From: Gemmatimonadota bacterium | Lineage (GTDB): Bacteria; Gemmatimonadota; Gemmatimonadetes; Longimicrobiales; Gaopeijiaceae | Assembly (NCBI GenBank): GCA_034521595.1 | Contig: JAXHMG010000003.1 | Span: 640,001 to 704,000 of the forward strand | Length of the DNA: 64,000 bases | Reading direction: 5' to 3' | Part shown: positions 4,293 through 51,013 of the stretch, piece by piece | Numbering within the stretch: position 1 is the first letter of the stretch | Layout of the letters: each line of letters begins with the position of its first letter | Notes under the pieces: generated by a model | Seen by the model: the letters and a program-made list of their open reading frames with translations, nothing else | Told to the model about the DNA's origin: nothing | The model's database searches: none | Program-made: the position numbers and the translations under genes

Positions 4293-4445
4293 TCAGGGAT
4301 CGGAGCAATCACGCTGGTACCCGCAGGCCCCACATACCAACTTGCAATGGCGATCGACCATGGGTTCGCCGCACAGGTCACACACCGTCCCCGTGGGCGC
4401 CCCGGGCGTCGGACTGGAGCCCCCCGTCCGTTCGTGTTCGGACAC
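4293..4445 (-). CDS. small (~50 aa) Cys-rich zinc-finger protein, HVO_2523-like
   Basis: CDLCGEPMVDRHCKLVCGACGYQRDCSDP; fits between co-oriented genes; GTG start uncertain. Confidence 0.65.
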   Translation of the reverse strand: MSEHERTGGSSPTPGAPTGTVCDLCGEPMVDRHCKLVCGACGYQRDCSDP

Positions 4446-4492
4446 CGTGGATCGCCGGGTACGAGCATCGTCGTATCGACCGGGTCGGCTGC

Positions 4493-31797: not shown

Positions 31798-31851
31798 GCC
31801 GGATTGGATTTCCACCAACGATATTCCTTGAACAGTTAGTCGGAGATAGAC

Positions 31852-32841
31852 ATGGCGGACGTTCTCGCATTTGCGGAACAGCGTGACGGGCAGATCGGTG
31901 GATCGGCCCGGGAAGCGGTCAGCGCGGCGGCGCGGCTTGCCGGTTCACTCGAGGGGGCCGCGCACGCGCTCGTGCTCGGCGCGCCCGGAATCTCGGAGCA
32001 AGGCGGCGACCTCGGCCGCTTCGGAGCCGAAGTGGTGCACGTGGGAGAGCACGAGGCGCTGGAGGGGTACAATCCAGAAGCGTACGCGGCGGTCGTCGCG
32101 GAGCGTGTTCGCGAAGGTGGATACCATGCGGTCATCTTTCCGGCGACCACGCTCGGCAAGGACCTGGCGCCCAGGGTCGCGGCATCCCTGGATGTGCCGC
32201 TCGCCGCCGACGTGACGGGGCTCGAGGCCGAGGGCGGGAAGATCTCCATCGTGCGGCCCGTGTATTCCGGGAAGGCCTTCGCGCACCTGGAAGCGGAGAC
32301 GACCCCCGTGCTCGTCTCCATTCGCCCCAACGTTTTCCACGCGGCAGAGTTGAACGCGGCCGGTGCGGTCGAGACCTTCACGCCGGAGGTCGATCCGCAG
32401 GCCCTCCGCGTGCGCGTGCTCGAGCGGAAGGGTGCGGGCGATGGGCAGCTCGACGTCTCCGAAGCCGCGATCATCGTCTCGGGTGGGCGTGGCATGAAAG
32501 ATCCGGAGAACTGGGGCCTGCTCGAAGGCCTGCGGGACGCCATCGGATCCGGAGCCGCCCTGGGTGCTTCGCGGGCGGTGGTGGACGCGGGGTGGCGGCC
32601 TCACGGCGAGCAGGTCGGACAGACCGGTAAGACGGTCGCGCCGAAGCTCTACTTCGCGGTCGGAATCTCGGGGGCGATTCAACACCTCGCCGGCATGCGC
32701 ACGTCGCAGACCATCGTGGCGATCAACAAGGATGCGGACGCTCCGATCTTCGGGGTGGCCGACTACGGCATCGTGGGCGACCTCTTCGACGTGCTCCCGC
32801 GACTCACGGAAGAGATCTCGGCCCTGAAGTCCGGGGATTAG
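31852..32841 (+). CDS. etfA: electron transfer flavoprotein alpha subunit
   Basis: VSGGRG, GASRAVVDAGW, QVGQTGK, GISGAIQH, INKDADAPIF. Confidence 0.96.
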   Translation: MADVLAFAEQRDGQIGGSAREAVSAAARLAGSLEGAAHALVLGAPGISEQGGDLGRFGAEVVHVGEHEALEGYNPEAYAAVVAERVREGGYHAVIFPATTLGKDLAPRVAASLDVPLAADVTGLEAEGGKISIVRPVYSGKAFAHLEAETTPVLVSIRPNVFHAAELNAAGAVETFTPEVDPQALRVRVLERKGAGDGQLDVSEAAIIVSGGRGMKDPENWGLLEGLRDAIGSGAALGASRAVVDAGWRPHGEQVGQTGKTVAPKLYFAVGISGAIQHLAGMRTSQTIVAINKDADAPIFGVADYGIVGDLFDVLPRLTEEISALKSGD

Positions 32842-35428: not shown

Positions 35429-36502
35429 ATGACAGGGTCTGCGAGGTCTTGTAGGGGGGGGTCGAGCCTCGGGGTGCGACTCGCCGCGATCGTCGCCGTC
35501 GTCATGGCGACGTGCCCCTTCCGTGCCGGCGCTCAGGAGCCGGTGCGAACACTCGTGGACGAGAACCTCAGGCTGGAGCCGCAGGGCCAGATCCTGGGGC
35601 GGCTCGACGCCGGCGCTCCGCTCACGCGGCGATCGGCTCGCGACTCCTGGGTCGAGGTCACCGTCGAGGGGTGGGTCTGGACCGCATCGCTCCGCACGAC
35701 CGAGCGCAACGGCTTCGATCTCGTCGTGTCCGTCACGGACGGGGAAAACCTCCGGGCCGAGCCTTCAGGGGAGGTTCTGGGGCGGCTGGAAGAGGGCACG
35801 CTCCTCGAGGAGGTGGGACGAGAGACCGGTTGGGTCCGGGTCCGCCGCACGGCGTGGATGTGGTCCGAATCGGTGTCCGAGCCGGCTGAGGTGACCGCGG
35901 ACGAGGCTCGGTCCGAGAGCGATGCGGCATCGCGCTCGGCTTCCGGCGCGGCGCCCTCGGGCGCTGGGGAACCCGACCGCTTCCTTCGAGTGCAGCCGGG
36001 CACGGAGATTCTCGGTGCGCCGGACGGCGACACGCTCGCCGTGACCTCGGGCAACGGGGACGTCGAGGTCTTGGCGAGGGAAGGGAACTGGGCTCGGGTG
36101 CGTCTCGATGGGTGGATGTGGCGACCTCGGAGCGCGGACGAAAGCGACGAGGAGGGAGCGCCTCCCGCGGAGGAGGTCACGCCCGAGACCTTGGCCGAAC
36201 CGACCGGAGAAAGCTACCGAGGACGGCGGGTTCGGTGGACCGTGCAGTTCATCTCACTCGAGCGGGCGGAAGCGATCCGGACGGACTTCTTCGAGGGAGA
36301 GCCATTCATTCTCGGAAGGTTCGGAGGTGGGGACGGGCCCTTCGTGTACGTGGCCGTGCCCCCCGATCGCGTGCCCGAGGTTCAGGGACTCACCCCGCTC
36401 GACCTGGTGACGGTGACCGGACGGGTACGGGAGACGTCGTCGACGCTCACCGGGACGCCCATTCTCGACCTCCTGTCCATCGAGCGAGGCTCCGAGCGGT
36501 GA
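35429..36502 (+). CDS. secreted protein with three SH3b-like repeats and a C-terminal OB-like domain
   Basis: ENLRLEPQGQILGRL...WVEV..GWVW, ENLRAEPSGEVLGRL...WVRV..AWMW, GNWARVRLDGWMW; VTVTGRV. Confidence 0.7.
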   Translation: MTGSARSCRGGSSLGVRLAAIVAVVMATCPFRAGAQEPVRTLVDENLRLEPQGQILGRLDAGAPLTRRSARDSWVEVTVEGWVWTASLRTTERNGFDLVVSVTDGENLRAEPSGEVLGRLEEGTLLEEVGRETGWVRVRRTAWMWSESVSEPAEVTADEARSESDAASRSASGAAPSGAGEPDRFLRVQPGTEILGAPDGDTLAVTSGNGDVEVLAREGNWARVRLDGWMWRPRSADESDEEGAPPAEEVTPETLAEPTGESYRGRRVRWTVQFISLERAEAIRTDFFEGEPFILGRFGGGDGPFVYVAVPPDRVPEVQGLTPLDLVTVTGRVRETSSTLTGTPILDLLSIERGSER

Positions 36503-38691
36503 CCACGCGACGGCGCACGTACGGGAGAGCGGCTTCGAGCGCGCTCTGGTCGTGTGGCATCGCCTTCTTGATCTCGGGATGCTCGGAGAACCCGGTCGAT
36601 CCACGACTCGCTCCGGTGGAGGTGGTCGTGGCCGAGGGGGACGGGCAGTACGGTACGGTCGGGACCGAGCTGGGAGAGCCCCTCCGGGTGGTCGTGCGTG
36701 AAGCGGCGTCGAAGCTTCCGGTCTCGGAGGTGAGCGTCCAGTGGACCGTGACGTCGGGCGACGCATCGTTGTCCGGTCCGGACGTCAGGGTCACGGACGA
36801 GGCGGGCATCGCGGAAACCACCCTTCGTCTCGGGCCGGCGGAAGGAAGGGTCACGGTCTCCGCGACGGTCGCTGATCAACCCGACGCGCACGTCACGCTC
36901 CAAGCGTTCGTGGTTGGCATTCCCCGGATCACGGCGGTCGATCCCGCCGAGGTCGAGGCGGGAGGGACGGTCGTGCTCGAGGGGGAGAACTTCAGTCCGA
37001 CACCGGAGCAGAACCTGGTCCTGTTCGAGGGGCTCCGAGGACGTGTGGAGACCGCGACCCCGACCCGCATGGAGGTCGAGGTTCCCGACTGTATCCCGAG
37101 CCGCTCGACCGTGGAGGTTCGCGCCGGTCTCGGCTCGGTGATGAGCGAAGCGGTGCCGTTGTCCGTGTCCGGGACGGGCGGTAGCCTGCCGCTAGACGTC
37201 GGTGATGTCGTCGACCTCGACGATCCCGACGGTCTGGACTGTGTCCGCCTCTCGGGCGCGGACAGCGCGGCCTACGTCGCGGTCGCGACTTCGGCGAGTA
37301 CGATCGCCGGTGCGACTCATCCGTTCCGTATGACCGGGCTCGCATCCGGGGGAGGGCGAACGACGGCCGGTCGGGCTCGAGACGTCCTGTCGGGGGCGCC
37401 GCCTCGGGGAGACGCCCCGGAGGAGCTCTCGGCGCAGGAGCGGTTCGAGTCGAGCTTGCGTCTCGAGGAGGCCGAGCTGGTCGAGAGGCGCGTCTCCGGA
37501 GCTCATCCGACTCCCGAGGCGTTGCGCGCGCCGGCGGCCGCCCCCTCCACTGGTCAGCACCGCGACTTCTTCGTGTTCAATGGCGGCGACGACGCGGCGG
37601 ATCGCTTCGACCAGGTCCGAGCCACCGTGAGGCACGTGAGTCGGCATGCCGTCATCTACGTGGACGACGAGGCGCCGGAAGGGGGTTTCACCGACGCGGA
37701 CCTCGACAGCATCGGGGAGCGTTTCGACGAAGTGATTCACCCCACCGTGACCGATGTGTTCGGTGCCCCGTCGGACCTGGACGGGAACGAGCGCGTCGCC
37801 ATGCTCTTCACCCCGGTCGTCAACGAGCTCACCGAGCGGGAGTCCGACAGCTTCGTCGGAGGGTTCTTCTACGGTCGCGACCTGATGCCGGAGCTCGCGT
37901 CGAGTAACGGGGGCGAGATCTTCTATGCGTTGGTCCCGGATCCGAACGGTGAGCACGGGGATCCGAGGCAGCTGTCGCAGGTGAGGTCCGTGGTGCCGTC
38001 GATTTTGGCCCACGAGTTCCAGCACATGGTCCACTTCAACCAGCGCGTGTTGCTGCGGGACGCCTCTCAGGACGCGCTCTGGATGTTGGAAGGGTTGGCA
38101 CAAATGGCCGAGGAGCTCGTGGCCCGCGCCTACGAGCGGCGGTCCGCGCCGTCGGACGCGGAGCTCTTCCGCGATGGGAACCGCCGCCGCGCACGGCTCT
38201 ATCTCGACCGCCCCGATTCGGTGAGTCTGATCGTGTCGAGCGGACGGGGCACGCTCGCCGAGCGTGGCGCCGGCTTTCTCTTTCTCTTGTATCTGCACCA
38301 GCAGCACGAAGGCGATCTCCTGTCCCGATTGACCCGTACCCGACGGACGGGGGTAGAGAACGTGGAGGCCGAGACCGGCCGCCAGTGGGGTGACCTCGTG
38401 CCCGAGTGGTCGGCGGCCGCGTTCCTGGACCGTGAGGGTGTTGGACGGGAAACGCTTCGCTACCGGGATTACGACCTTGCCGGCTTCCTGGGCGATCCTT
38501 TCCCGTTGTTCTGGGAGACCGGCGGTGATCGGGACTTCTCACGCTCCTCGAGATTGCCCTCTTCGGCGAGCCGATACTTCGTCCTGGTGCCCGGAGAGAC
38601 CGCCATCTTGAGCGTCGGTTTCGCGGGAGCGGGAGGTGGACGCCACGCGCTGTCCGCTCGGACGGGATTGAGGATCGTGCGGATACGGTGA
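36499..38691 (+). CDS. lipoprotein with Ig-like (Big_1) and IPT/TIG domains and an M30-like zinc peptidase domain
   Basis: ISGC lipobox, GDGQ.G.VG..L..PL.V, PRITAVDP..G..V.LEGENF, AHEFQHMVH...WMLEGLA; GTGA overlap with upstream gene. Confidence 0.75.
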   Translation: MTTRRRTYGRAASSALWSCGIAFLISGCSENPVDPRLAPVEVVVAEGDGQYGTVGTELGEPLRVVVREAASKLPVSEVSVQWTVTSGDASLSGPDVRVTDEAGIAETTLRLGPAEGRVTVSATVADQPDAHVTLQAFVVGIPRITAVDPAEVEAGGTVVLEGENFSPTPEQNLVLFEGLRGRVETATPTRMEVEVPDCIPSRSTVEVRAGLGSVMSEAVPLSVSGTGGSLPLDVGDVVDLDDPDGLDCVRLSGADSAAYVAVATSASTIAGATHPFRMTGLASGGGRTTAGRARDVLSGAPPRGDAPEELSAQERFESSLRLEEAELVERRVSGAHPTPEALRAPAAAPSTGQHRDFFVFNGGDDAADRFDQVRATVRHVSRHAVIYVDDEAPEGGFTDADLDSIGERFDEVIHPTVTDVFGAPSDLDGNERVAMLFTPVVNELTERESDSFVGGFFYGRDLMPELASSNGGEIFYALVPDPNGEHGDPRQLSQVRSVVPSILAHEFQHMVHFNQRVLLRDASQDALWMLEGLAQMAEELVARAYERRSAPSDAELFRDGNRRRARLYLDRPDSVSLIVSSGRGTLAERGAGFLFLLYLHQQHEGDLLSRLTRTRRTGVENVEAETGRQWGDLVPEWSAAAFLDREGVGRETLRYRDYDLAGFLGDPFPLFWETGGDRDFSRSSRLPSSASRYFVLVPGETAILSVGFAGAGGGRHALSARTGLRIVRIR

Positions 38692-38752
38692 GGAGTAGCG
38701 TACCCGGTTCTGAATCTTTGGCGGGATGGCGTCGTAGGGAACGGAGAGGCGT

Positions 38753-39565
38753 ATGCCATCCGATGACTTTCGCACGCTGAGGCCCATGCACTGCACCACC
38801 TGTGGCGAGGCGATCGAGCCTGGTGAGGACCGCTGCACCACCTGCGGTGCGGTCGCGCCCGCGGCGCGGATCGTGGGACATGCGGACCGAGTGCGGGCCT
38901 GCCCTCGCTGCGCGTACCAGGGCGAAGGCGTGCCGTACTTTCGCCGGGCCGGGCACGTGGCTCTGTTGGTCGGGGTGAGCGTCTTTACCTACGGGATCGG
39001 CGGACTCGTATACTGGTTGGTGCGTCGGCACCATCTCGTGTGCCCGCGATGCGGCCTCGGTTGGGAGAATGCGGCCCGCGTGATGTCCGTGGCGGGCCCC
39101 GAGGCCGAGCAACATCTTTCGAACGGGAAGGGAGCGCTCGACGAGCCATTGCCGAGTGCGGGCCTCAAGCGGCGCATCGGTGGGGTGGCGATGGTCCTCT
39201 TGGCCACGCTGCTCGTGCTCGTGGGTATCGTGGAAGGGGAGGCGGCGGCCGTCGCGCTCGGAAGCGTGGTCGGGGTGGGAGGGTCGCTGACGTTCTACTG
39301 GGGCTGGCGGGGTCTTCAGGACCGGCGTCACGCCGTCCTGCGGGGGTTGCAGCGGCGGGTTCTCCACCTCGCGGCGGAGAAAGGGGGCACGCTCACTGTG
39401 ACGGAGGCTGCCGCGGAGTTGAACCTTTCGCTGTCCGCGGCGGAGAGGATCCTCACCGGAATGGACGATGATTTCCGTGTGCGGTCCGAGATCTCGCGGG
39501 AGGGGGTCCTCTACTACGAGTTCCCGGAGCTTCGGCACCGGGGAGACCTCGGGCCCGGGGTCTGA
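38753..39565 (+). CDS. membrane protein with double zinc ribbon, LITAF-like CxxC-hydrophobic-CxxC segment and C-terminal HTH-like domain
   Basis: CTTC..CTTC, CPRC-TM-HHLVCPRC, two more TMs, GTLTVTEAAAELNLSLSAAERIL...YEFPEL. Confidence 0.7.
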   Translation: MPSDDFRTLRPMHCTTCGEAIEPGEDRCTTCGAVAPAARIVGHADRVRACPRCAYQGEGVPYFRRAGHVALLVGVSVFTYGIGGLVYWLVRRHHLVCPRCGLGWENAARVMSVAGPEAEQHLSNGKGALDEPLPSAGLKRRIGGVAMVLLATLLVLVGIVEGEAAAVALGSVVGVGGSLTFYWGWRGLQDRRHAVLRGLQRRVLHLAAEKGGTLTVTEAAAELNLSLSAAERILTGMDDDFRVRSEISREGVLYYEFPELRHRGDLGPGV

Positions 39566-39697
39566 TCCGGAGGGCCCGTCGACTGCACCTACGTCGACGG
39601 CTGCTTTCTCCCGGCCCCTATGTCGATTCGGGACGCATTTCAATCGGCTGGGGGTGAAAATGTTGTGTGTGGGTCCGGGAGGGTACTACCTTGAGGA

Positions 39698-41518
39698 ATG
39701 CTCCCGACACACATCAGTTCGTCCGACCCGATCCGGACCTCTCCGACCCGCGTCGTCGGTCTCTCGGAGCACAGAAGCCGTCGACGACAAAGGCTTGCGC
39801 TCGCGCGCGCGATCTTATCCGGCGACGCGGTGCGCGCCGCTCTCGTGGATCACCTGAGCGAATTCGCCCAGATCACTGGAGCGGACCGTGCCGCGGCCGT
39901 GTGGATCGACGAGTACAGCGAGGGTGGCGTCCATCCGCACGTAGTCCTCGACCTGCTGAGCGACCGTCCTCGCCGTGCATTTCCGCGCGAGCCACTCGAG
40001 CGAGCATGGGAGTTGGGTCTGCCGGGGACGTACGAAGCCGGAAGCTCCTCCAACCGGCATGACGCGGAAGCCTCGAGCTGCTTCGCGGTCGCGCTCGGAA
40101 GCGACGGTGCACGAGCCTGGTTCCTCGTTTCCGACTCGGTCGGTCCCCGGCCGTGGTTGACGGCCAAGGACCGAGAGCGGGCGATGTTCTTGTCCGGAGA
40201 GTGCGCGAGTGCGCTGCTTCACCGGGATCTCGATGAGCTCTCCGAGCAGCCGAAACGGAATGGTCGGGGCTTCGTCGGGCTACCCGTTCTCGACGATTGC
40301 GAGGGCCGGGAGGATCGCCCCGAGGTCACGGCCAAGGTGGAGCAACGCTTCTTGGTGGTCCGGCTCACGCGAGCGTTGATCGACGGCGAGCTCGATGACG
40401 CCCCCGAAGATACGTGGCGTGAACGTCTGGACACGGTACGGGCGGAGGTGGGCAAGCGTGTCGACGACGGGGGAGACGCCGAGGATCGCTGGGCCCCCGT
40501 GTTGGACGCCGTCGCCGGCCGTACTTTTGTAGACTTGGCCGACGCGCTCCTCCATGCCGGAAGATCGGCCGAAACCGAAGGGCACGTTCACGGGGCACTG
40601 GAGCTGTATCGTTGCGCATACGATGCGGCCGCGACCGTAATGCACGCGGGAGCAGCGGTGGATGCGGCTCGCTGCCAGGGAAGGGTTCAGCGCCGCCTTG
40701 CCCGATGGGAGGATTCGGTCCGCCAATACCAGCTGGCGCACGATGTGGCGGTGGCGGCGGAGCTCTGGGAGCGTGCGGCGCGGGTGCTCGTCGGTCTGGC
40801 CTCGGTGCGGCGGGAAGTGGGCAACATCCCCGACGCACGCAGGGAGCACGTACGGGCGCTCGAGTTCGCCGAACGGTGTGGTGATGCCGACACCGTCGCC
40901 ACCGTGCATCACGGCATTCTCACTGTCGAGCACGTGGCCGGCAATCTGGATGTGGCGCTACAGCACGGATGGTCCGCGGTGTCACAGTACGAGGACGAGT
41001 CCGGCAGGATGCGGTGCCTCGCCAGTCTGGCCGGGGTCTTGCTCGAGTTCGGTGATCGGACCGCGTCGGAAGACGCGTGGACCGTAGTCGCGGAACGCAC
41101 CGCTGATCTCTACTATCGGATCTATGCGCGTGATGCGCTCGCGTATTTGGCCGCCCTCCGGGGAGACTTGGAGGGATTCCAGCGACAGGCCGCTTTGTGT
41201 GATGCCCTGGACTGGGAATCGGGACCGCTGTCGGCGAAGGCCGAGATCCTCTATTACCGTGGCAAGAGCTTCCGTGCTCTCGGTCTCCGCGATACCGCGA
41301 AAGCCTGGCTCGAGCGTGCGGTGACGTTCGCGGAGGAGCACGGCTTCAATCGTACGTTGTTCGAGGCTGAGGACGAGTTGAAGATGCTCGAGCAGGAGAA
41401 CGCGGTGCGTAACCGCGCGGCCGAGGACGACGCTGCAAACACGACGCCCGCCGCTCCTCCCGAGATCCGTGACGGACTTCGAGAGATGCGACGGGCGGTC
41501 GCCGCGTCGGGCTCGTGA
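39698..41518 (+). CDS. GAF-like + tetratricopeptide-repeat protein, candidate peptide receptor
   Basis: N-terminal TGADRAAAVW...FAVALG..AWFLV (GAF-like); ~7 TPR-like repeats, e.g. ARVLVGLASVRREVGNIPDARREHVRALEFA and AEILYYRGKSFRALGLRDTAKAWLERAVTFA. Confidence 0.75.
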   Translation: MLPTHISSSDPIRTSPTRVVGLSEHRSRRRQRLALARAILSGDAVRAALVDHLSEFAQITGADRAAAVWIDEYSEGGVHPHVVLDLLSDRPRRAFPREPLERAWELGLPGTYEAGSSSNRHDAEASSCFAVALGSDGARAWFLVSDSVGPRPWLTAKDRERAMFLSGECASALLHRDLDELSEQPKRNGRGFVGLPVLDDCEGREDRPEVTAKVEQRFLVVRLTRALIDGELDDAPEDTWRERLDTVRAEVGKRVDDGGDAEDRWAPVLDAVAGRTFVDLADALLHAGRSAETEGHVHGALELYRCAYDAAATVMHAGAAVDAARCQGRVQRRLARWEDSVRQYQLAHDVAVAAELWERAARVLVGLASVRREVGNIPDARREHVRALEFAERCGDADTVATVHHGILTVEHVAGNLDVALQHGWSAVSQYEDESGRMRCLASLAGVLLEFGDRTASEDAWTVVAERTADLYYRIYARDALAYLAALRGDLEGFQRQAALCDALDWESGPLSAKAEILYYRGKSFRALGLRDTAKAWLERAVTFAEEHGFNRTLFEAEDELKMLEQENAVRNRAAEDDAANTTPAAPPEIRDGLREMRRAVAASGS

Positions 41519-41531
41519 TGAAGAGCGCCGA

Positions 41532-41669
41532 CTACATGCCGGGGTCGGGGCTGTGCTGGAGCTCACCCGGGTCGGGGCTGTGGTCCGGACCAGTGATCGA
41601 CGAGGTGGTGCAGGCGGCGGTTCCAACCGTGAGGAGAAGCACGAGGAGGGAGCGTCGTAGAGTCTTCAT
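41532..41669 (-). CDS. 45-aa exported (pro)peptide with duplicated HSPDPG motif
   Basis: MKTLRRSLLVLLLTVGTAACTTSSITGPDHSPDPGELQHSPDPGM*; AGGA RBS 9 nt upstream; basic n-region, hydrophobic h-region, TAAC; in-frame 27-nt-period repeat. Confidence 0.7.
   Translation of the reverse strand: MKTLRRSLLVLLLTVGTAACTTSSITGPDHSPDPGELQHSPDPGM
41539..41582. repeat. 17-bp near-identical direct repeat (period 27 nt) encoding HSPDPG twice
   Basis: CCGGGGTCGGGGCTGTG (41539-41555) and CCCGGGTCGGGGCTGTG (41566-41582); the single mismatch is synonymous. Confidence 0.85.
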
Positions 41670-41781
41670 TCGAGACAATCCTGAATCTGGAGTGGGCCCG
41701 GTGTGAGGGCAGTTCGTTCTTCCGCTTGATTCAAGTTTTCTCGACCCTGGACTGCGGAAGGTACCTTTTTGCTTCCAAGGT

Positions 41782-42600
41782 ATGTCTTTTACGAAGATCA
41801 TGGCCCTTATCGCGATGTTGACACGGGTGCGCGAGACGAACGAAGCTGTGACCCACGTGCTCGGCCGGGAGCACGAGATCGTCCGGGCGGCCACTTGGTC
41901 GAGGCTGGTCTGGTCGCTTCATGAGCGTCCGGTCACGGTTGCCGTGCTCGACGGTGCGGCGCTCGCTCGCATCCATCCCGAACGGGCGATCGTGGAGCTT
42001 CGGCGACGATATCCGAGCCTGGGGATCGTTGTCTTGGCCCGTGACGTGACCGACGCGGGTACGTGGTTCCGCCTTGGAAGAGCCGGGCTTTCCGACCTCG
42101 TGATTCTGCCGCTCGACGGGATGGCTCCAGCGCTGCCGAGGGCCATCCGGAACGCGCTCGACGGGAGCACGGCCTCGGTCGTGGAACGGGTCGTGAGCCC
42201 TTCGCTTCCCCGGAGGGAACGGAACGCCGTGCGCTGGACGCTCGAGGGGGTGCAGCGGGGGTGGGATACGGACGAAGTCTGCGCGCGCGCGGGGCTCACC
42301 CGACCCCACATGAGCGTCTGTCTGCGCGCGCACGGGCTCCCTTCGGTGGGACGTTTGCTGACGTGGGTCCGGATGCTCCACGCGGGGCGTTGGCTCTCTG
42401 ATCCCGGTCGCACGGGCGAGAGCGTTTCGCGGCAGCTGGGCTACGCCAACGGGGCGACGTTCAGGCGGGCTTTGAGGAACTACGTCGGGGCGACGCCGAG
42501 CGAGGTCGCGGCGCTGGGCGGCTTGCTCCCGGTGCTGGAATGCTTCGTCCAAGCATGCGATCTTGAAGTGCGGCCGCGCGCATTGAGCTCGGTCGCGTGA
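41782..42600 (+). CDS. AraC-family transcriptional regulator with N-terminal degenerate receiver-like domain
   Basis: C-terminal TGESVSRQLGYANGATFRRALRNYVGATPSEV; N-terminal VAVLD...LRRRYPSLGIVVL...RAGLSDLVILP. Confidence 0.85.
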   Translation: MSFTKIMALIAMLTRVRETNEAVTHVLGREHEIVRAATWSRLVWSLHERPVTVAVLDGAALARIHPERAIVELRRRYPSLGIVVLARDVTDAGTWFRLGRAGLSDLVILPLDGMAPALPRAIRNALDGSTASVVERVVSPSLPRRERNAVRWTLEGVQRGWDTDEVCARAGLTRPHMSVCLRAHGLPSVGRLLTWVRMLHAGRWLSDPGRTGESVSRQLGYANGATFRRALRNYVGATPSEVAALGGLLPVLECFVQACDLEVRPRALSSVA

Positions 42601-42624
42601 CGACCACGCCAGCCGGAAGGCGCA

Positions 42625-42879
42625 GTGATGATGAGAGAGTTCACCGATCGCGAAGGACGAACGTGGACCGCCCTCGTGCGCGAGGCACCCGCGACCGATT
42701 ACAAGGGACGCTACCACCTGGTGTTGCGCCCTGCGGATGAACCGGCGCGGGAATATCCGTTGGAGGATATCCGTTGGAACAGCGAGCGGACGGGTCTGCG
42801 AACCATCGAAACCATGTCCGAGGTCGAGTTGCGCCGACGCCTCCGCTCCGCGGTCGGGCGGGGGGCGGAGGTCCGGTGA
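42625..42879 (+). CDS. small hypothetical protein (84 aa)
   Basis: REFTDREGRTWTALV...IRWNSERT..RTIETMSEVELRRRL; compact ORF right after the AraC gene. Confidence 0.65.
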   Translation: MMMREFTDREGRTWTALVREAPATDYKGRYHLVLRPADEPAREYPLEDIRWNSERTGLRTIETMSEVELRRRLRSAVGRGAEVR

Positions 42880-42909
42880 GGTCACCCTGAAGCGACCCCG
42901 GGACCACGC

Positions 42910-44688
42910 TCAGCCTCCTCCGACTCCGACTTCACCTTCGTTACGAGGGATGACCAACCACTGTCCCGCGAGGATGGTGTTGCGATCAACCCGTGGGTTG
43001 GCGTCGAGGAGGTCGGCGAGCGAGATGCCGTACTGGCGGGCGATGACGGTGAGGTTCTCTCCCGGGCCGATGCGGTGACGCTGCGCGCCACTGCTAGCGG
43101 GCGGTGACACTTCGCTGGCCGCGACCTGTTCGTCCGCCGCCCGGGCTTCACCGAGTCCGCGCTCGACACGGGCCAGTCGGGCGCCGATCTGGTTCTCGAC
43201 GGCTTTCGCTCTAGCCACCGAGGGTGTTCCATTGAGCATGATGGCGAACGCTAGCCGCTCGCCGTTCTGGGTACGGACGACGCCGCTGAGCGCGGAAACG
43301 CGCTCGATCGTGCCTGTTTTCGCACGCAGGTTGCCGGCGGCCGCCGTCCGGTACATGCGCGGGAGCTCACGCGCGCGTCCGGCCTCCGGGAGTGTGGCCC
43401 AGTAGGTGTTCCAATGGGGATGCTCCGCCATGCGGTCCAGGACCTCGACGAGTTGGCGCGGAGTGACCCGGTTGCCGACAGAGAGCCCCGAGCCGTCGAG
43501 GAGCTCGATTCCGGCCGTGTCGACCCCGATACGCGCCAGGGCACTCCGGACTGCCCGCGCGCTCGCGGAAGGGGAGCCGACATTCGTCTCGATCCGCCCG
43601 ATGGTTCGGAAGACCAGCTCCGCGAAGAGGTTGTGGCTCTGCTTGTTGATCACTTCCAGATACGCCCGAAGCGGATCGGACGCGTAGCGGGCCAGAACCT
43701 TCGTGCCCCGCGTGCCCGCGAACGGTGCAGACAGCCGTGGCACGCTCGAGCGCCCGGGACGGTCCACGGTTCGCACCGTGCCCGACACCTCGACGCCCCT
43801 GTCCTCGAGCGCCGCGTGGAAAACGGAGGCGGCGAATGTAGCGGGATCCGGGACGGTGAACTGTCGCCACGCGTCTCTGGCTCTGATCCCGATCGTACCC
43901 TCGACGCGAATCGGTGCGAGGGGTTCCTCCCGGAGGATCGCGACCCTTGGTCTCGCTCCAGCTACGGTTTGCGCCAGATTCGAGATATCCAACCCGGCAT
44001 GATCCGGAATCGATTGGACGCGAGGGGGGGCGCCGACCTCCGCTGCCGGGGAGATCCGCATAGAGACGACGTTCTCGTTGAACGACAGGGCCGAGATCGG
44101 CGCGGTGAAATGATCGTTGAGGTCTCGTGGGTCCCATCCCGTTGGGCGCAGTGGCCCCGGCAGAAAGGACGCATCAGCGACCAGATCCCCTCGTACTTCC
44201 CGGATACCCGAAGCCTCGAGTTGGTCGAGCAACTCCTGGAACACGGCATCCCTTCGGTGGTGAAACCGGTTCGACAGGCCCGGATCCCCCGTTCCGTAGA
44301 GGATCAGGTCTCCGTCGAGCACGCCGTCCTCCCGGACCGTGCCGTCCGTCATCAAATAGGTGAGGAAGCGGTAGTCCGGTCCGAGCACCTCGAGCGCTGC
44401 CGCCGTGGTGAGGAGTTTGACGTTGGATGCTGGAGCCAGTGGAACGTCCGGGTTGACGGAATACAGGGTGTCGCCGTGGTCCATGGATACCACGAGCACA
44501 CCTCGATCCGTGTCCTGCCACGAGCGCCCCAGAAGGAGTCGATCCAAGCCCGAGCCCAGGGACTCGATCGCGGTTCCAGTGGACGGTGTGGGCTGAGCGG
44601 ACGCTGTGGTGGGAAGCCCGAGCATGCCGACGAGGGCGGCTCCGGCGAAGACGGCACGGACCCGGGGGCTCCTTGCATCACGGGTCAT
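42910..44688 (-). CDS. dacB: D-alanyl-D-alanine carboxypeptidase/endopeptidase (PBP4, peptidase S13) with C-terminal LysM
   Basis: PASNVK, SHN, DGSGLS, AKTGT; LysM HRIGPGENLTVIARQYGISLADLLDANP. Confidence 0.93.
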   Translation of the reverse strand: MTRDARSPRVRAVFAGAALVGMLGLPTTASAQPTPSTGTAIESLGSGLDRLLLGRSWQDTDRGVLVVSMDHGDTLYSVNPDVPLAPASNVKLLTTAAALEVLGPDYRFLTYLMTDGTVREDGVLDGDLILYGTGDPGLSNRFHHRRDAVFQELLDQLEASGIREVRGDLVADASFLPGPLRPTGWDPRDLNDHFTAPISALSFNENVVSMRISPAAEVGAPPRVQSIPDHAGLDISNLAQTVAGARPRVAILREEPLAPIRVEGTIGIRARDAWRQFTVPDPATFAASVFHAALEDRGVEVSGTVRTVDRPGRSSVPRLSAPFAGTRGTKVLARYASDPLRAYLEVINKQSHNLFAELVFRTIGRIETNVGSPSASARAVRSALARIGVDTAGIELLDGSGLSVGNRVTPRQLVEVLDRMAEHPHWNTYWATLPEAGRARELPRMYRTAAAGNLRAKTGTIERVSALSGVVRTQNGERLAFAIMLNGTPSVARAKAVENQIGARLARVERGLGEARAADEQVAASEVSPPASSGAQRHRIGPGENLTVIARQYGISLADLLDANPRVDRNTILAGQWLVIPRNEGEVGVGGG

Positions 44689-44716
44689 CGGGGTACCCGT
44701 ATGTCGCGAGGGCCGG

Positions 44717-45199
44717 TCAGGCGCTCAGAGGGGTGTGCCCCCCCTCCGGTAGGCAATCCGCGCAATAGCCGGAAAGCTCGAAGCGATATCCGACGACGGT
44801 GAAGCTTCCGGCTCGCTCTCGTAGCTCCTCGAGCTCTCTTTTCGGCAACTCTCCGGGCAGGTCACGCACCTTGCCGCACGCGAGACAGCGGGCGTGATGG
44901 TGCGGGTCGGTGCGACCGTCGTAGCGGGAAGAGTCGTCGGTGTAGTTGAGCTTCAGGGCGAGGCCGCACCCCACCAAGGTTTCCAGGCTCTTGTAGACCG
45001 TGGCCAACGAGATGGTGGGAAGCTCGCCGCGCACGGCCACGAGCACTTCGTCCGCGGTCGGATGCGTGTCGGTGCTGACGAGATAGCGGTACACGGCGGC
45101 ACGCTGTTCCGTGAACCGCTGGCCGCTGGCCTCGAGTGCTTCGCGAAGCTGTGCTTCGCTGGTCTCGGGACTAGTGTCGATGTTCTGTTCGTCCTTCAT
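44717..45199 (-). CDS. Fur-family regulator, PerR-like
   Basis: TEQR, HPTADE, SLATVYKSL, RYD...HHHARCLACG, CADC. Confidence 0.9.
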   Translation of the reverse strand: MKDEQNIDTSPETSEAQLREALEASGQRFTEQRAAVYRYLVSTDTHPTADEVLVAVRGELPTISLATVYKSLETLVGCGLALKLNYTDDSSRYDGRTDPHHHARCLACGKVRDLPGELPKRELEELRERAGSFTVVGYRFELSGYCADCLPEGGHTPLSA

Positions 45200-45234
45200 C
45201 CGCTGCACCCTCGTAACCGGAGCTGGCTGATTGT

Positions 45235-45264
45235 AGTGTACACGGATTCGAGACTGGGTGTCAA
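45235..45264 (-). promoter_or_regulatory. sigma70-type promoter of the Fur/PerR gene
   Basis: TTGACA (45264-45259), 18-nt spacer, TACACT (45240-45235). Confidence 0.55.
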
Positions 45265-45319
45265 CCGAACCGAGCTTTGCGCCGAAGCGCGGAAATGCCG
45301 TCGATAAGCGAATTTAACC

Positions 45320-45877
45320 ATGAACGACCACGATGTTCCCATCCTGACGCTCGAGCCTCTGATCCAGGCGGTTCGGACTGGATTGGAGGGCTCCGGGTGG
45401 ACGCTCTCGGGCCTGCAGAAGACCACCAGCCACGAGTTCGAGGGACGGTGGGCCGGGGAATCCACCCGAAGCGCCTACTTGTTCTTCCACCGGGACGAGC
45501 GTGAAGAGCCGGTCGAGATCGACGTGTACCTCGACGAAACGAGCCGGGGACTCACCGGGACCCTCGCGTTGGTGGTGGATCTCCGTGACCTCGGGGAGGC
45601 AGGGCCCGTCCCCGAGTTGCTCGAGCGGCTCGCGACCCTGGCGGCCGAGCGTCTTCCACGGGGATGCCGGACACCCTTGTCCCTGCGCTTCGGACTGCCT
45701 GATCGGGGGGTGGGGGTCGGTGCCGCCGAGACGGAAGTCCGTTTCAAGCTGCGGATACCTCGCCGATCCATCGAGGAGGGGGCTGCTGCCGTGGTCGACC
45801 TTACGGGGGGTACGGTGTCCGCCTTCGAGCGTCTCCTGGACGAGCCGGAGCTCCATGCGGTGATGGCTCCGGTCTGA
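45320..45877 (+). CDS. hypothetical protein
   Basis: Globular-looking 185-aa ORF ([29 protein letters not shown]) filling the gap between fur and acs. Confidence 0.65.
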
Positions 45878-46013
45878 ATCCTCCTGCCAAGGGCCACATG
45901 CCCCGGATTGCGGCGCGCTCCCTTGCCGATCGGTCCATTGCCCGCAGATTGGGCGGAGTCAGCCGGTTCCGATGGGGACCGGGCAGTTGTGCTCCACATC
46001 CGCGAGGCGTTCG

Positions 46014-47972
46014 ATGAGTGAAGATTCCGCATCCCTCGACGACCTGCTGCACGAGAATCGGCGCTTTCCACCTCCGGAGTCGTTCGCGCATGGAGCCGTG
46101 CTTGCCGACCCCGAGGTGTATGAGCGGGCGGAGCGCGACAGGGAGGCGTATTGGGCCGGGTGGGCTTCGGAGCTCGAGTGGGCCGAACCGTGGGAAACAG
46201 TCCTCGAGTGGACGCCACCCCACGCGAAGTGGTTCGTGGGCGGCAAGCTCAACGTCGCGCGCAACTGTCTGGACCGGCACGTGGACGCGGGCAAGGGTGA
46301 GCGAACCGCGCTGCTTTGGGAAGGCGAGCCCGGCGACCGGCGGAGCTACACCTATCGCGAGCTCCTCGACGAGGTGTGCCGGCTCGCGAACGCGCTTGCC
46401 GAGCTAGGGGTCGGCAAGGGCGACCGGGTGACCATCTACCTCCCGATGATCCCGGAAGCGGCCGTCGCCATGCTCGCGTGCGCGAGGATCGGTGCGATCC
46501 ATTCCGTCGTATTCGGTGGCTTCAGCCCCCATGCTCTCGCCGACCGAAACAACGACGCCGACGCGAAGGTGCTGATCACGGCCGACGGCGGTTGGCGACG
46601 TGGCGAGATCGTGTCCCTGAAGGACAACGCGGACAAGGCACTCGAGACGTCGCCTACCGTTCAACACGTGGTGGTGGTGCACCGGGGCGGAGAGCTCTCG
46701 GAGCAGTCCGCACCCGCGATGGAGGCGGGCCGCGACCACTGGTACGGAGATTTGATCGAGAAGGCTTCGGCCGAGCACGCGGCGCCACCGATGGATGCGG
46801 AGGATCCGCTGTACATCCTGTACACCTCGGGCACGACCGGTAAGCCGAAGGGTGTCGTACATACCACGGGCGGCTATCTGACGCAGGTCTACGCCACCAC
46901 GAAGGCCGTCTTCGATCTGCGCGACGACGACGTCTATTGGTGCACGGCCGACGTCGGGTGGGTGACCGGGCACAGCTACATCGTCTACGGACCACTGGCG
47001 AACGCGGCCACCGTGGTCATGTACGAGGGCGCCCCCGACTGGCCGAACCGAGGGCGGTTCTGGGAGATCTGCGAGCGCTACGGGGTCACGATCTTTTACA
47101 CGGCACCCACCGCGATTCGGGCGTTCATGCGGTGGGGCGAGTCCTGGCCGGCGAAGTTCGATCTAGGGTCCCTCCGCCTGCTGGGCACCGTGGGTGAGCC
47201 GATCAACCCCGAGGCGTGGATGTGGTATCACCGGGTGATCGGCGGCGAACGCTGTCCAATCGTGGACACGTGGTGGCAGACCGAGACCGGGGCGATCATG
47301 ATCACCCCGCTCCCCGCGCTCACCGAAGCCAAGCCGGGCACGGCCACCAAGCCCTTTCCGGGGATCGAAGCGACGATCCTCACCGATGCAGGAGAGGAGA
47401 GCAACGCAGGGTATCTCGCCATCACGTCACCGTGGCCGTCGATGCTTCGCACGATCTGGGGAGACGACGAGCGTTACCGTGCGACGTACTGGGCGAAGTG
47501 GCCCGACACGTATTTTCCTGGCGACGGAGCCAAGCGCGACGCCGACGGATATTTCTGGATCCTCGGTCGTGTGGACGACGTCCTCAACGTGGCGGGACAC
47601 CGCATCGGCACCATGGAGGTGGAGAGCGCGCTGGTCGATCATCCGGCCGTGGTGGAAGCGGCCGTGGTCGGCAAGAAGCATGAGGTGAAGGGGCAGTCGA
47701 TCGCCGCGTTCGTGACGCTCGGTGAAGACCATGAGCCATCCGACGCCCTGACCCGGGAGGTCAGGGACCACGTCGGTACGATGATCGGCGCGATCGCGAA
47801 GCCCGAGATCGTGGTGTTCACGGCGGATCTGCCGAAGACACGGTCGGGCAAGATCATGCGACGGTTGTTGCGCGACATCGCCGACGGCCACGTGGTGGGC
47901 GACACGACGACTCTGGCGGACCCGGCGGTCGTGGAGCGGGTCAAGGCGCATTACGAAGAAGACGGGGTCTGA
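46014..47972 (+). CDS. acs: acetyl-CoA synthetase
   Basis: [46 protein letters not shown]. Confidence 0.98.
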
Positions 47973-47977
47973 CGGCC

Positions 47978-48015
47978 GGCGGAGGGGAGCACCGCGCCGG
48001 GGCCAGCCCTCCGCC
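47978..48015. terminator. hairpin between convergent acs and acyltransferase genes
   Basis: GGCGGAGGG ... CCCTCCGCC; no U-tract. Confidence 0.35.
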
Positions 48016-48837
48016 TCAATCCGCCAGCGGGTCGGGCGTCGATGGGGCCTTGTCGGCCCGCTGCTCCGGCGGCTTCTCCTTGATCTGGCGAGCGGGTACG
48101 CCGACGTAAACCCAGTGTGGCTCGGTATCCCTGGTCAGGATCGAGCCCGCTCCCACCATGGAATCTTCCGCGACCGTAGTGCCTGCCAGGATGGTGGCGT
48201 GATAGGTGATGCGAGCCCCGGGACCGATGCGCGTCCAGGGAAGGTGCACCATCCGCCCGTCCACGATGTCGTGCGAGTGGGAATAGACGTTCGCGAAGTC
48301 CGATACGGAGGCACCCCTTCCGATCTCGATCCCTCCCCGATCGTCCAGGAGCACGTGCCGATGGATCACGACGCCGTCGTCCACGTGGAGGTTGTAGCCG
48401 AAGGAGACACGCACGTGGCAGAATGCCTTGAAGTTCTTGCCGCAGCTGCCGAACACGTGCCGGGCCAGAATCCTTCGGAAGCGCACGCCCAGAGCGACAT
48501 TCTCACCGAGCGGACTACGGTCGAACATCTCCCACAGCCAGATCAGCGGCTTGCGCGGCGTGTACCGCTCGAGGTCGATATCCTCGTAGTACTCGGGCTC
48601 CAAGGTGATGTTGCGAGGATCCATCTGGCTGAGGGCTACCCGGGCTCCGAGCGACAACTCGTTCGGGTCCGCGTTCCGTAGCTCGGGGTAGTAGATACTC
48701 GTCAGCACGTCGCGGCAAAGCTCGTTCCGGTCACAATCGGGATCGTCGAGCGCGTCCGAGATGCTGCCGAGCCAGGAGTCGTAGAGCTCCTCGGCTTCCT
48801 GGGAAACCGGGACGGGGCGCAGAGGATGAAAGGGCAT
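48016..48837 (-). CDS. hexapeptide-repeat acyltransferase
   Basis: Left-handed beta-helix repeats, YSHSH, VGAGSILTRD, YVGVPAR. Confidence 0.85.
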   Translation of the reverse strand: MPFHPLRPVPVSQEAEELYDSWLGSISDALDDPDCDRNELCRDVLTSIYYPELRNADPNELSLGARVALSQMDPRNITLEPEYYEDIDLERYTPRKPLIWLWEMFDRSPLGENVALGVRFRRILARHVFGSCGKNFKAFCHVRVSFGYNLHVDDGVVIHRHVLLDDRGGIEIGRGASVSDFANVYSHSHDIVDGRMVHLPWTRIGPGARITYHATILAGTTVAEDSMVGAGSILTRDTEPHWVYVGVPARQIKEKPPEQRADKAPSTPDPLAD

Positions 48838-48975
48838 GGCAATGAGCTTGAAGTGGTTTCGTGATCGGGGGAGCTCGCCCTCCGAGGCGTCGCTTCAGCC
48901 GGCCCGGTGCGAGGGCGGGCCGCGTCGATTAGACTTGAGCGGCCTCGAAGTTCCCTTCAAAGGTCGAGCGATTCG

Positions 48976-49389
48976 ATGCACGATGTCCTCAGGCAGCGCC
49001 TCCTCCGTCGTATCGAGAGCCTGCCCGACGCGCAGATCTACCAAGTGCTCGACTATGTCGAATTCCTCGAGTCGAAGTACGTCGACGCGGCCCCCGCCCA
49101 GACCACCGGCTTGCAGAAGTTCGCCGAAGGTCTGGAGGACAAGCTGAGGAAGAAGGCGGTGAGCCCGAGCACGATTCGCGAGGCATTCCAGCTGATCGCC
49201 GCGGCGGATCGCGTGCTCTCGGATGTTTCGTCCGCCGGAAAGCAGATCCTGGAGGACCTGAACGAGCCTCCGGGAACGAACGAGATCCCGGAACGGGAGG
49301 GCCCCGCGGAGCACGGTGAGCTACCGGGAAGGGCAAGGGGCACGGAGGACGCGGCCTCCCCGGACGACCCGAGCGAGCCTTCCCGTTGA
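48976..49389 (+). CDS. DUF2281-like small helical protein
   Basis: RIESLPDAQIYQVLDYVEFLESKY. Confidence 0.65.
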   Translation: MHDVLRQRLLRRIESLPDAQIYQVLDYVEFLESKYVDAAPAQTTGLQKFAEGLEDKLRKKAVSPSTIREAFQLIAAADRVLSDVSSAGKQILEDLNEPPGTNEIPEREGPAEHGELPGRARGTEDAASPDDPSEPSR

Positions 49390-49405
49390 CGCTCGGGAAG
49401 GCTCG
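49374..49405 (+). terminator. 12-bp stem-loop over the stop of the DUF2281-like gene
   Basis: CGAGCCTTCCCG-8 nt-CGGGAAGGCTCG. Confidence 0.4.
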
Positions 49406-49527
49406 GCCTATCCTCTCCCATGAAACCGATACGAAAGACGCTTTACGTGAACGCCCGTCCTCGCCCGTGCCGCTTCGGTGGCCTGCGCGGAGGCGGGCGT
49501 TCGCCGTTCTGCGAGGTCGAATAATTG

Positions 49528-51006
49528 ATGAGTGATCAGGCTCCGGGTAGGTCGAAGATCGTCCAGGAAGGGCTCACGTTCGACGACGTGCTCCTCATTC
49601 CGGGTCATTCCGTGGTGCATCCGAAGGACACGGACGTATCGTCCCTGGTGACCCGGGGCATCAGGCTGAACATACCCTTGCTCGCCGCGGCCATGGACAC
49701 GGTGACCGAGTCCGCAATGGCCATCCAAATGGCCCGCGAAGGTGGGATGGGCGTGGTTCACAAGAACCTTCCGGCCGAACGGCAGGCGGAAGAGATCGAC
49801 CGGGTCAAGCGCTCCGAGAGTGGGATGATCCTGAATCCCATCACGCTCGACTCCGATGCCCGGCTTCAGGATGCCCATGACCTCATGGCCCGGTTTTCGA
49901 TCAGTGGCGTCCCGATCGTGGAAGGTGAAGGACGTCTGGTCGGCATCATCACGAATCGCGACATGCAGTTCGAGGTCGATCTTTCGCGATCCATCGCCGA
50001 CGTGATGACGTCCGAGAACCTCGTTACCGTGCCGGTCGGAACGACGCTCGAGGAGGCGCAGGCGATCCTTCACCGGCATCGGATCGAAAAGCTTCCCGTC
50101 GTGGACGAGAACGGGAAGTTGCGCGGCCTGATCACGGTCAAGGACATCTTCAAGCGCCGGAAGTACCCGGACGCGTGCAAGGACGAACACGGGCGACTGC
50201 GGGTAGGGGGAGCCGTCGGTGCCTCCAATGCCGACATGGACCGGGCGGCGCTGCTCGTGGACGCCGGAGTGGACATGCTGGTCGTGGACACCGCGCACGG
50301 CCACTCCGAGGGGGTCCTCAAAGCGGTGGCACGGGTCCGAGAGCGGTTTCCCGACATTCAGCTCGTCGGGGGAAACGTGGGAACCGTCGCAGGAGCCAAG
50401 GCGTTGGTGGAGCGTGGTGTCGACGCCGTCAAGGTCGGGGTCGGACCGGGATCGATCTGTACGACCCGGATCGTGACGGGGGTCGGGCTCCCACAGATCA
50501 CGGCGATCATGGATGCGGTGCAGGGCGTCGACGAGGCCGTTCCGGTCATCGCGGACGGCGGCATCCGCTTTTCCGGGGATATCGTCAAGGCGCTGGCCGC
50601 AGGGGCGCATTGCGTCATGATGGGATCGATGTTCGCGGGCACGGATGAAGCGCCCGGCGAAAGCTTTCTCCTGGAGGGGAGACGCTTCAAGACCGTTCGC
50701 GGAATGGGTTCTTTGTCGGCCATGGAGGAAGGGTCGGCCGACCGGTACTTTCAGGAAAGCTCGGCGGACAAGGCCAAGCTCGTTCCGGAAGGGATCGAAG
50801 CGAGGGTCCCCTACAAGGGTCCGGTATCGGATACGATCTATCAGCTGCTCGGGGGCCTGCGAAGTGGCATGGGGTACTGTGGCGCCGGAACACTCGCCGA
50901 GCTCCGTGACGATGCCCGCTTCAACAGAGTCACCATGGGCGGCCTTCGTGAGTCGCATCCGCACGATGTGACCATCACTCGTGAGGCACCGAACTACCGC
51001 CTCTGA
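49528..51006 (+). CDS. guaB: IMP dehydrogenase
   Basis: [18 protein letters not shown] pair, [18 protein letters not shown]. Confidence 0.98.
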
Positions 51007-51013
51007 TTCGCGC

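Follow-up and report, generated by a model that had tools for sequence, protein, structure and literature searches.

A TPR protein, a repeat-bearing lipoprotein-type micropeptide and an AraC regulator are inherited as one cassette in Gemmatimonadota and may form a peptide signalling system

The genome of a Gemmatimonadota bacterium (GenBank assembly GCA_034521595.1; 3.49 Mb in three contigs) carries a cassette of three genes that code for a tetratricopeptide repeat (TPR) protein, a 45-aa micropeptide with a lipoprotein-type leader and a repetitive tail, and an AraC-family regulator with a receiver-like domain. It lies in a stretch of 64,000 nucleotides of contig JAXHMG010000003.1 (positions 640,001 to 704,000; G+C 64-70%), hereafter the window, whose own numbering is used throughout. 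We found that the three genes are inherited as a block and that the repeat units of the micropeptide keep their peptide sequence while the underlying DNA has diverged. Tentatively, and with a confidence that falls somewhat short of even, we read the cassette as one in which an exported multi-copy peptide signal is sensed by the TPR protein, which then acts on the receiver-like AraC regulator; it would be RRNPP-like without being a member of the RRNPP family. The interval 39698-42879 had been proposed to hold such a circuit in an original prediction made from the sequence alone. All genes described there were present as stated, and the TPR, micropeptide and AraC genes hold together as one system, whereas the 84-aa open reading frame (ORF) at 42625-42879, which the interval also included, is found in cassette-less genomes as well. 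The features of the cassette, in part predicted with AlphaFold2 (AF2), are as follows.

39698-41518, + strand: gene of the GAF-like and TPR protein, 606 aa, TGA stop at 41516-41518 (ORF list)
39761-40222, + strand: predicted N-terminal alpha/beta domain, about residues 22-175 (AF2 model)
40319-41407, + strand: predicted TPR superhelix, about residues 208-570 (AF2 model, TPR fold matches)
Residues 588-605 of the same protein, + strand: predicted C-terminal helix (AF2 model)
41532-41669, - strand: gene of the lipoprotein-type micropeptide precursor, 45 aa (ORF list; orthologues conserved)
41610-41612, - strand: Cys20 of the putative lipobox TAA/C (sequence reading)
After Cys20 and before unit 1, - strand: linker TTSSITGPD (sequence reading)
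41565-41582, - strand: unit 1, HSPDPG, with the spacer ELQ next (sequence reading)
41538-41555, - strand: unit 2, HSPDPG, with the terminal Met next (sequence reading)
41670-41799, no strand: divergent control region between micropeptide and AraC genes (alignment of 24 orthologous intergenic regions)
41782-42600, + strand: gene of the AraC/XylS-family regulator (ORF list), likely true start 41800, giving 266 aa
About 41806-42159, + strand: predicted receiver-like N-terminal domain of the AraC protein (AF2 model, alignment A2)
About 42280-42507, + strand: HTH_18 DNA-binding domain (Pfam)

An orthologue scan with one genome per species returned 70 GAF-TPR loci, all from Gemmatimonadota; 60 of these have a complete interval between TPR stop and AraC gene. 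In 58 of these 60 loci we found an intact convergent ORF of 40-87 aa with a lipobox. The two exceptions were an assembly gap in the repeat array (locus L037) and an in-frame stop at the first unit (locus L039). A Shine-Dalgarno-like motif precedes the micropeptide gene in 47 of 57 cases, with AGGA before the ATG in the window copy. Public gene callers predict the ORF too: among 17 matching clusters, five are named, three as 'hypothetical protein' and two as 'predicted small lipoprotein YifL' (one annotation pipeline). The 45-aa ORF is a real, conserved gene. The convergent ORF with its two HSPDPG copies and a stop 13 nt from that of the TPR gene was thereby confirmed as originally described, and so was the expectation that small exported-peptide ORFs accompany TPR homologues. 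Three loci show peculiarities of their own. In L039, from the same genome as locus L006, the stop (about 4357-4446) stands where the His/Tyr codon of the first unit is expected; the gap in L037 (about 4273-4770) lies inside the repeats, so such arrays break assemblies; and in L079 (4331-4635) there are two micropeptide genes in tandem whose tails are related (..IIPGPNT).

Judging by its sequence, the micropeptide leader is a signal peptide of the lipoprotein type. In the window, the product reads MKTLRRSLLVLLLTVGTAAC, then TTSSITGPD, HSPDPG, ELQ, HSPDPG and a final M. Read against the general lipobox consensus, the Cys is invariant at residue 18-23 in all 55 distinct peptides, and position -1 is always A, G or S. 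Beyond the lipobox, 31 peptides have no Cys and 24 have two, an odd count never being seen, and such paired later Cys would fit disulfide formation outside the cytoplasm. The window's genome encodes both LspA (Peptidase_A8, E 2.1e-32) and Lgt (LGT, E 9.1e-52). A signal peptide, as first proposed for this ORF, is present, but its type had to be corrected to a lipobox-bearing one with Cys20.

The tail of the micropeptide consists of a short linker, in which [GA]-P is frequent and a C-x-D-P-x-x-C loop occasional, and of 1-9 copies of one unit of 6-8 residues, mostly heptads. In most orthologues it ends at a unit boundary, the units reaching the last residue. The unit differs by species and more than 25 different units were seen, among them HTPDPGL, HNPDAGN, HNPDSGS, YNPDPGQ, YTPDPGA, YVPDPGN, YQPGPNN, YTPGPNS, IQPGTGN, VQPGTGN, HSPGSGN, HNPNVG, HTLGSGN, HTIGSGN, GTLGSGN, YDIGSNS and YDLGSDN; single-copy tails, for example ..CEGFPTTGN, also occur. 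When adjacent units are compared, 351 codon differences are synonymous and 10 nonsynonymous (45 genes, 200 units, from related genomes, so that the ratio is what matters). Base differences at codon positions 1, 2 and 3 numbered 16, 8 and 353, with a pS of 0.45 and a pN/pS of 0.009; the two HSPDPG copies of the window differ at 2 synonymous bases. Near-identical units in diverged DNA point to old copies rather than recent slippage, each held to the same peptide, and by this codon pattern each unit is evidently under strong selection to stay identical. The few mixed arrays, such as one with a single Y-unit among six H-units (L085), look like turnover in progress. A second repeat-bearing lipopeptide was not found in the window's own genome. 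Three other roles for the unit were considered and rejected: metal binding by its His (the first residue can also be Y, I, V or G), an N-glycosylation sequon (only some unit types have one) and a C-terminal sorting tag (no hydrophobic tail follows the units).

We fixed a test of co-divergence beforehand: among mutually nearest pairs of loci by GAF-domain plus AraC distance (n=16), each pair's TPR-domain divergence was divided by the average of its GAF-domain and AraC divergences. The median ratio was 1.40 where the unit differs (n=8) versus 1.08 where it is the same (n=8; one-sided Mann-Whitney p = 0.0035). This co-divergence is suggestive and would fit direct contact between TPR domain and unit. 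Mean column identity by domain (0.48 for the N-terminal domain, 0.38 for the TPR region) was uninformative. Co-variation of the repeated C-terminal motif across homologues had been named as a check, and the unit is species-specific and the TPR domain diverges faster where it differs.

In Longimicrobiales-type Gemmatimonadota, the genes for TPR protein, micropeptide and AraC regulator occupy a single chromosomal site, where they are present or absent together. Among 36 genomes of the same family, the TPR and AraC orthologues were both found in 16 and neither was found in 16, the remaining genomes being cut by contig ends or ambiguous; the conserved linkage of the AraC gene that had been anticipated is thus present. 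This tally and the one for the 84-aa gene below include two unpublished genomes (G037 and G056), on which no claim depends. In six cassette-less genomes, the flanks (Zn-ribbon gene on one side; 84-aa gene, S13 peptidase and Fur on the other) are kept and TPR, lipopeptide and AraC genes are all absent. The neighbourhood is syntenic across the order: of the 70 loci, 66 have the Zn-ribbon gene upstream and 35 the S13 peptidase downstream. Since synteny extends so widely, conserved order alone carries little weight and the phyletic pattern tells more.

The TPR and micropeptide genes of the window converge with 13 nt between their stops (41519-41531). Across loci the two stops lie a median of 13.5 nt apart, with a 4-nt overlap in 9 of 54, so the two transcripts must overlap or terminate within one another; antisense or interference effects at the 3' ends are possible. 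A scan of 41200-42000 gave no intrinsic terminator and no sigma-70 promoter, only the sigma-70 consensus being covered, and Rfam, searched over 39000-43500 up to E 1, matched nothing. Among the sequencing runs that contain the stretch, no RNA run is listed and four DNA runs hold the whole or part of it.

Loci with paralogous TPR proteins provided a second view of the pairing. In a sister family, the AraC gene is followed by an adjacent, co-directional TPR gene without GAF part, and a convergent lipobox ORF comes next in 2 of 5 loci. In a third family, from larger genomes, a small lipobox ORF lies beside 12 of the 14 fetched paralogous TPR loci, and 10 of these 12 ORFs end in a G-[SG]-G-[NGH]-like motif (..YVIGSGN, ..LTLGSGN, ..YMGSGG, ..HLGSGG, ..LLVGGN). 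Four of the loci (L104, L108, L110 and L113) encode two copies of one short peptide, identical or one residue apart, with an unrelated spacer between them. In L104, L108 and L113 (genomes G051, G039 and G043), a GAF-HisKA-HATPase kinase gene, a TPR gene and a lipopeptide gene form a co-directional string, with TPR proteins of 341-371 aa and lipobox proteins of 74-91 aa that have a Thr/Ser-rich spacer; three paralogous loci reproduce the window layout with AraC. Neither the paralogous TPR proteins nor the kinases have clear membrane segments. Across the paralogues, TPR protein and lipopeptide stay together, and the output module, AraC or a GAF kinase, is exchangeable. When the window's N-terminal domain was compared by BLASTP with the GAF histidine kinases from the paralogous loci, no significant match resulted (E 9.4 and 0.085), which lends no support to a shared ancestry of fused and separate GAF modules.

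The 606-aa protein matches TPR_12 in Pfam (E 2.2e-9), and its AF2 model (pLDDT 87) predicts an alpha/beta N-terminal domain followed by about 17 helices over residues 195-570. By hydropathy, the TPR protein and the AraC regulator appear to be cytoplasmic, as neither has membrane-like segments (maximum Kyte-Doolittle value, KD(19), 1.14 for the TPR protein), and the description of the former as a cytoplasmic protein with TPR repeats holds. Orthologues are 33-63% identical, and the named homologues are all from metagenome-assembled genomes of Gemmatimonadota/Longimicrobiales, labelled 'TPR repeat protein' or hypothetical. The best fold match of the superhelix is LGN (Foldseek E 1.7e-7; VIA Z 19.4). 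Among RRNPP folds, RapH (Z 16.8), Rap of phi105 (Z 15.9), NprR (Z 14.9) and PlcR (Z 13.1) all rank under LGN and designed TPRs, and Rap of pLS20 came at Foldseek rank 23. Because the matches to Rap, NprR and PlcR are no better than those to LGN and designed TPRs, the predicted fold is generic and not evidence of RRNPP ancestry. RRNPP models in Pfam and NCBIfam did not match the protein; NCBIfam had nothing for the TPR protein, the micropeptide or the 84-aa protein. Pfam found no helix-turn-helix (HTH) in the TPR protein, and its N-terminal domain is predicted to be alpha/beta, neither an HTH nor a Rap-type helical bundle.

That the N-terminal domain is GAF-like, as first suggested, stands as a lead: the topology is alpha/beta and ESM Atlas feature scores to GAF clusters were 0.97-0.98, whereas a profile search of PDB sequences gave no GAF match and a single chance-level one (E 0.63). 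Pfam GAF_2 weakly matched one orthologue (E 0.12, positions 12-134 of 136), and the window protein has no Pfam GAF match. Co-folding of the full TPR alignment with micropeptide residues 16-45 gave a score of 0.02 and a mark of 0.32, which is evidence neither way. The public protein set holds the TPR protein in a 557-aa form (92% of the query), i.e. with a start at 39845, 49 codons later; the longer form is favoured since the orthologue alignment is conserved from about residue 19.

The AraC protein carries HTH_18 at its C-terminus (E 1.8e-12, over the curated cut-off). Its AF2 model (pLDDT 90) has an N-terminal domain of 5 strands and 5 helices that matches FixJ (E 1.2e-5), PleD, NarL and 2qxy (TMt 0.82, root-mean-square deviation 2.2, 122 columns); on this model, the domain folds as a receiver. 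A canonical receiver site comprises an acidic pair after strand 1, an Asp after strand 3, a Thr or Ser after strand 4 and a Lys after strand 5. Of these, alignment A2 retains just the Asp at the end of strand 3 (D57); where the remaining three should be, the window protein has T-R, A and L/P, and orthologues show no conservation there. An AraC regulator with a degenerate receiver, as it had been described, is thus what the fold and the incomplete phosphorylation site indicate.

Alignment of the 24 intergenic regions revealed a strongly conserved 21-nt element, GGTATRTCTTTTYCGAAGATC, at 41779-41799, abutting the conserved AraC ATG at 41800. The ATG at 41782, which is the start of the listed ORF, falls within this element. 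From the listed start, the divergent region measures 112 nt, in line with the roughly 110 bp first given; since the orthologue alignment favours 41800 and the element ends exactly at 41799, the true start is probably 41800 and the region 130 nt long. Within the element, ATCTT..AAGAT forms a short inverted repeat; candidate roles for the element are promoter core, operator and leader. A regulon search for it across the genome at up to 2 mismatches gave only two weaker 2-mismatch sites.

Taken as a signalling system, the cassette would operate as follows. The 45-aa product would be exported via Sec, lipidated and cut at Cys20 by Lgt and LspA. Its tail (two HSPDPG copies in the window, as many as nine identical heptads in relatives) would be clipped to short peptides by an envelope protease; the peptides would build up outside the cell and then be re-imported. 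Inside, the cytoplasmic GAF-TPR protein would bind them with its TPR superhelix and would in turn alter the activity of the adjacent receiver-like AraC regulator, as Rap does with response regulators. The targets of the AraC regulator would include, at a minimum, the cassette's own divergent promoter region. One Opp/Dpp-type binding-protein gene (SBP_bac_5) is present in the window's genome. A wider version, in which Gemmatimonadota use a so far unrecognised class of lipoprotein-routed pheromones across the phylum, with 1-9 identical heptapeptides that are released, re-imported and read by cytoplasmic TPR proteins wired to receiver-like AraC regulators or GAF kinases, is somewhat less probable still.

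Several points weigh against this reading. Lipidation, unit release, uptake, TPR binding, contact between TPR protein and AraC, and the regulon are steps that we infer. A lipid anchor is odd for a diffusible signal and requires an extra cleavage step, and no candidate protease or importer linked to the cassette was found. The residues at unit boundaries (N/H, S/Y, Q/Y, A/Y, G/H, E/H and others) follow no single cleavage rule, and the unit is not conspicuously faster-evolving than the surrounding proteins. In the window's family the cassette is single-copy, chromosomal and at a syntenic site, unlike the mobile, multi-copy Rap-Phr. The predicted TPR fold is the generic one described above, the co-divergence test is small with its 16 pairs, and the codon differences between units are not independent events.

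A rather improbable alternative is that the repeat tail acts in the envelope itself, as multivalent ligand, tether or surface determinant of a regulated lipoprotein, and that GAF-TPR protein and AraC only regulate its transcription upon an intracellular cue, never contacting the peptide. The lipoprotein leader with its invariant Cys and the disulfide-like Cys pair of some peptides would suit such a role, and so would the two YifL-labelled clusters among the 17 matching ones. AraC regulators often control a divergent neighbour, and a conserved cis element does lie in the divergent region; the release of peptides that signalling demands is, moreover, something we infer. The units themselves point the other way: strict identity at saturated synonymous divergence is expected of a precursor of a single peptide and needless for a structural repeat, while the single-unit forms of 41-45 aa would leave a very small mature product. 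A regulator that never meets the tail also sits poorly with a TPR domain that diverges faster where the unit differs, and with TPR as the lipopeptide's constant partner across paralogues while the output switches between AraC and a GAF histidine kinase.

We consider it unlikely that the TPR protein binds the precursor tail before export and is thereby titrated off or onto AraC, so that the cassette would report the flux of export and lipoprotein maturation rather than density. Such a switch would dispense with re-import, since all sensors are cytoplasmic; one precursor with several units would titrate more than one TPR molecule, and TPR, AraC and small exported protein are inherited together as it would require. 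The co-divergence of TPR and unit fits it as well as it fits a released signal. Its precedent is the secretion-dependent AraC-family MxiE with the TPR chaperone IpgC (PMC3299695, PMC10701871). Here, however, the exporter would be constitutive Sec and not a gated machine, which leaves the sensed cue obscure, and the TPR part has about 8 repeats and a GAF-like domain versus 3.5 repeats in type III secretion chaperones. Several paralogous pairs with distinct peptides argue for signal discrimination, which a flux sensor does not need, and the invariant lipobox Cys and the paired Cys point to a function after export. [quoted passage not shown] Multi-core and lipobox-bearing precursors (DAG-RiPPs) exist and are reported to be widespread (PMC13056109), and the units all start with a conserved residue, be it aromatic, His or hydrophobic, and have a core rich in Pro and Gly. 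Yet neither the cassette nor its Pfam-assigned neighbours (36112-52237 and two ETF genes at 31048-32841) include a modifying enzyme, the block that is gained or lost contains TPR, lipopeptide and AraC only, and paralogous loci add a kinase or AraC, not an enzyme.

The reading as a sensed peptide signal draws its logic from Rap-Phr and the other RRNPP(A) systems of Bacillota and their phages. There, too, a cytoplasmic TPR protein adjoins the gene of a small exported propeptide, and Rap, which has no HTH, acts on receiver domains; here a receiver-like AraC adjoins. In both, the active part is expected C-terminally. RRNPPA propeptides are described as exported via Sec and type I signal peptidase, with 1-4 copies of the pheromone, identical in some and in tandem in Phr (PMC11343458). 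In contrast, our cassette belongs to diderm Gemmatimonadota, has a leader for signal peptidase II rather than I and up to 9 units, and its TPR protein has a GAF-like N-terminal domain in place of an HTH or Rap helical bundle. Its genes converge, with stops that often abut or overlap, and in the window's family it is vertically inherited as a single chromosomal copy. The analogy to an RRNPP circuit, as originally proposed, therefore stands as a working model, while assignment to the family itself is not supported, given the generic fold, the GAF-like effector and the lipoprotein leader.

Other known systems share single traits with the cassette. Yeast alpha-factor is made from a precursor with a signal peptide and tandem identical peptides in variable copy number that differ synonymously between copies. 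Such pro-pheromones are eukaryotic, have Kex2-type dibasic spacers and act on a surface receptor, whereas the units here are mostly contiguous, without spacer or dibasic site. SicA-InvF is another type III pair of TPR chaperone and AraC co-activator, besides that of Shigella. In the latter, secretion activity governs the joint action of MxiE, of the AraC family, and the chaperone IpgC (PMC3299695), itself a TPR protein (PMC10701871). By these accounts, TPR protein, AraC activator and secreted protein work as one regulatory unit, with the TPR protein in its free state as the signal. Our case involves no type III system; its TPR protein has four times the size and carries a fused GAF-like domain, and the repeat-bearing secreted partner, of 45 aa, would take the Sec/lipoprotein route. 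In filamentous cyanobacteria, which are diderm, the small exported precursor PatX is matured by a peptidase, and the resulting peptide, HRGTGR, with a Gly-rich motif like that of many units here, acts directly on the cytoplasmic regulator HetR and inhibits it (PMC12756182). HetR is not a TPR protein, PatX/PatS-HetR has no tandem identical units, that account reports no lipobox, and the system serves developmental patterning within a filament. It was overlooked in the original statement that RRNPP-type systems are essentially confined to Firmicutes. DAG-RiPPs resemble the cassette in their short precursors with a lipoprotein signal and the Lgt/LspA route (PMC13056109), and differ in the MNIO-type modifying enzymes encoded nearby, of which the Pfam-assigned neighbours of the cassette hold none.

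In open-access full text, with supplements and subscription literature outside the coverage, we found no prior description of the cassette. It looks like an undescribed diderm peptide signalling system: TPR sensing of an exported ribosomal peptide in a new phylum and with new parts. Ribosomal peptide signals with cytoplasmic receptors are seen as a hallmark of Bacillota, and diderms are thought to rely on small molecules, with PatX-HetR as a rare exception. A conserved cassette of TPR protein, multi-copy lipopeptide and regulator would extend the Bacillota signalling logic to diderms, in an abundant but barely studied phylum of soils and sediments. If true, it would be an independent diderm counterpart of RRNPP, and paralogue-specific peptides would provide private channels within one cell. 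With the more than 25 different units seen, such cassettes would also supply receptor-peptide pairs as a natural series for studies of specificity, and synthetic heptapeptides with one reporter would suffice to test the hypothesis directly. Whatever the fate of the signalling reading, the identity of the units despite saturated DNA divergence needs explaining.

Three further genes lie near the cassette.

36112-38691, + strand: ORF of 859 aa as listed, with Big_1 and TIG domains
38753-39565, + strand: 270-aa protein with an N-terminal double zinc ribbon
42625-42879, + strand: 84-aa ORF, inside the interval first proposed, a neighbour only

The 84-aa gene occurs in 33 of the 36 same-family genomes and in 53 of 61 related genomes, and since these include cassette-less ones, it is a neighbour and not a member of the cassette. 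It belongs to a hypothetical family found only in Gemmatimonadota, with no match in Pfam or NCBIfam and an Atlas model of pTM (predicted TM-score) 0.74. The 859-aa ORF contains an HEFQH motif that suggests a zinc metalloprotease, and its real start is probably later, near a lipobox-like site (..ISGC); it is syntenic in 53 of the 70 loci yet also present in cassette-less genomes, and is therefore not tied to the cassette. The 270-aa protein, encoded upstream of the TPR gene in 66 of the 70 loci, is strongly hydrophobic in a segment around residue 142 (KD 2.77) and gives a weak HTH-like match at its C-terminus. In about half of the loci with the Zn-ribbon and TPR genes, an extra gene of about 1 kb lies between the two.

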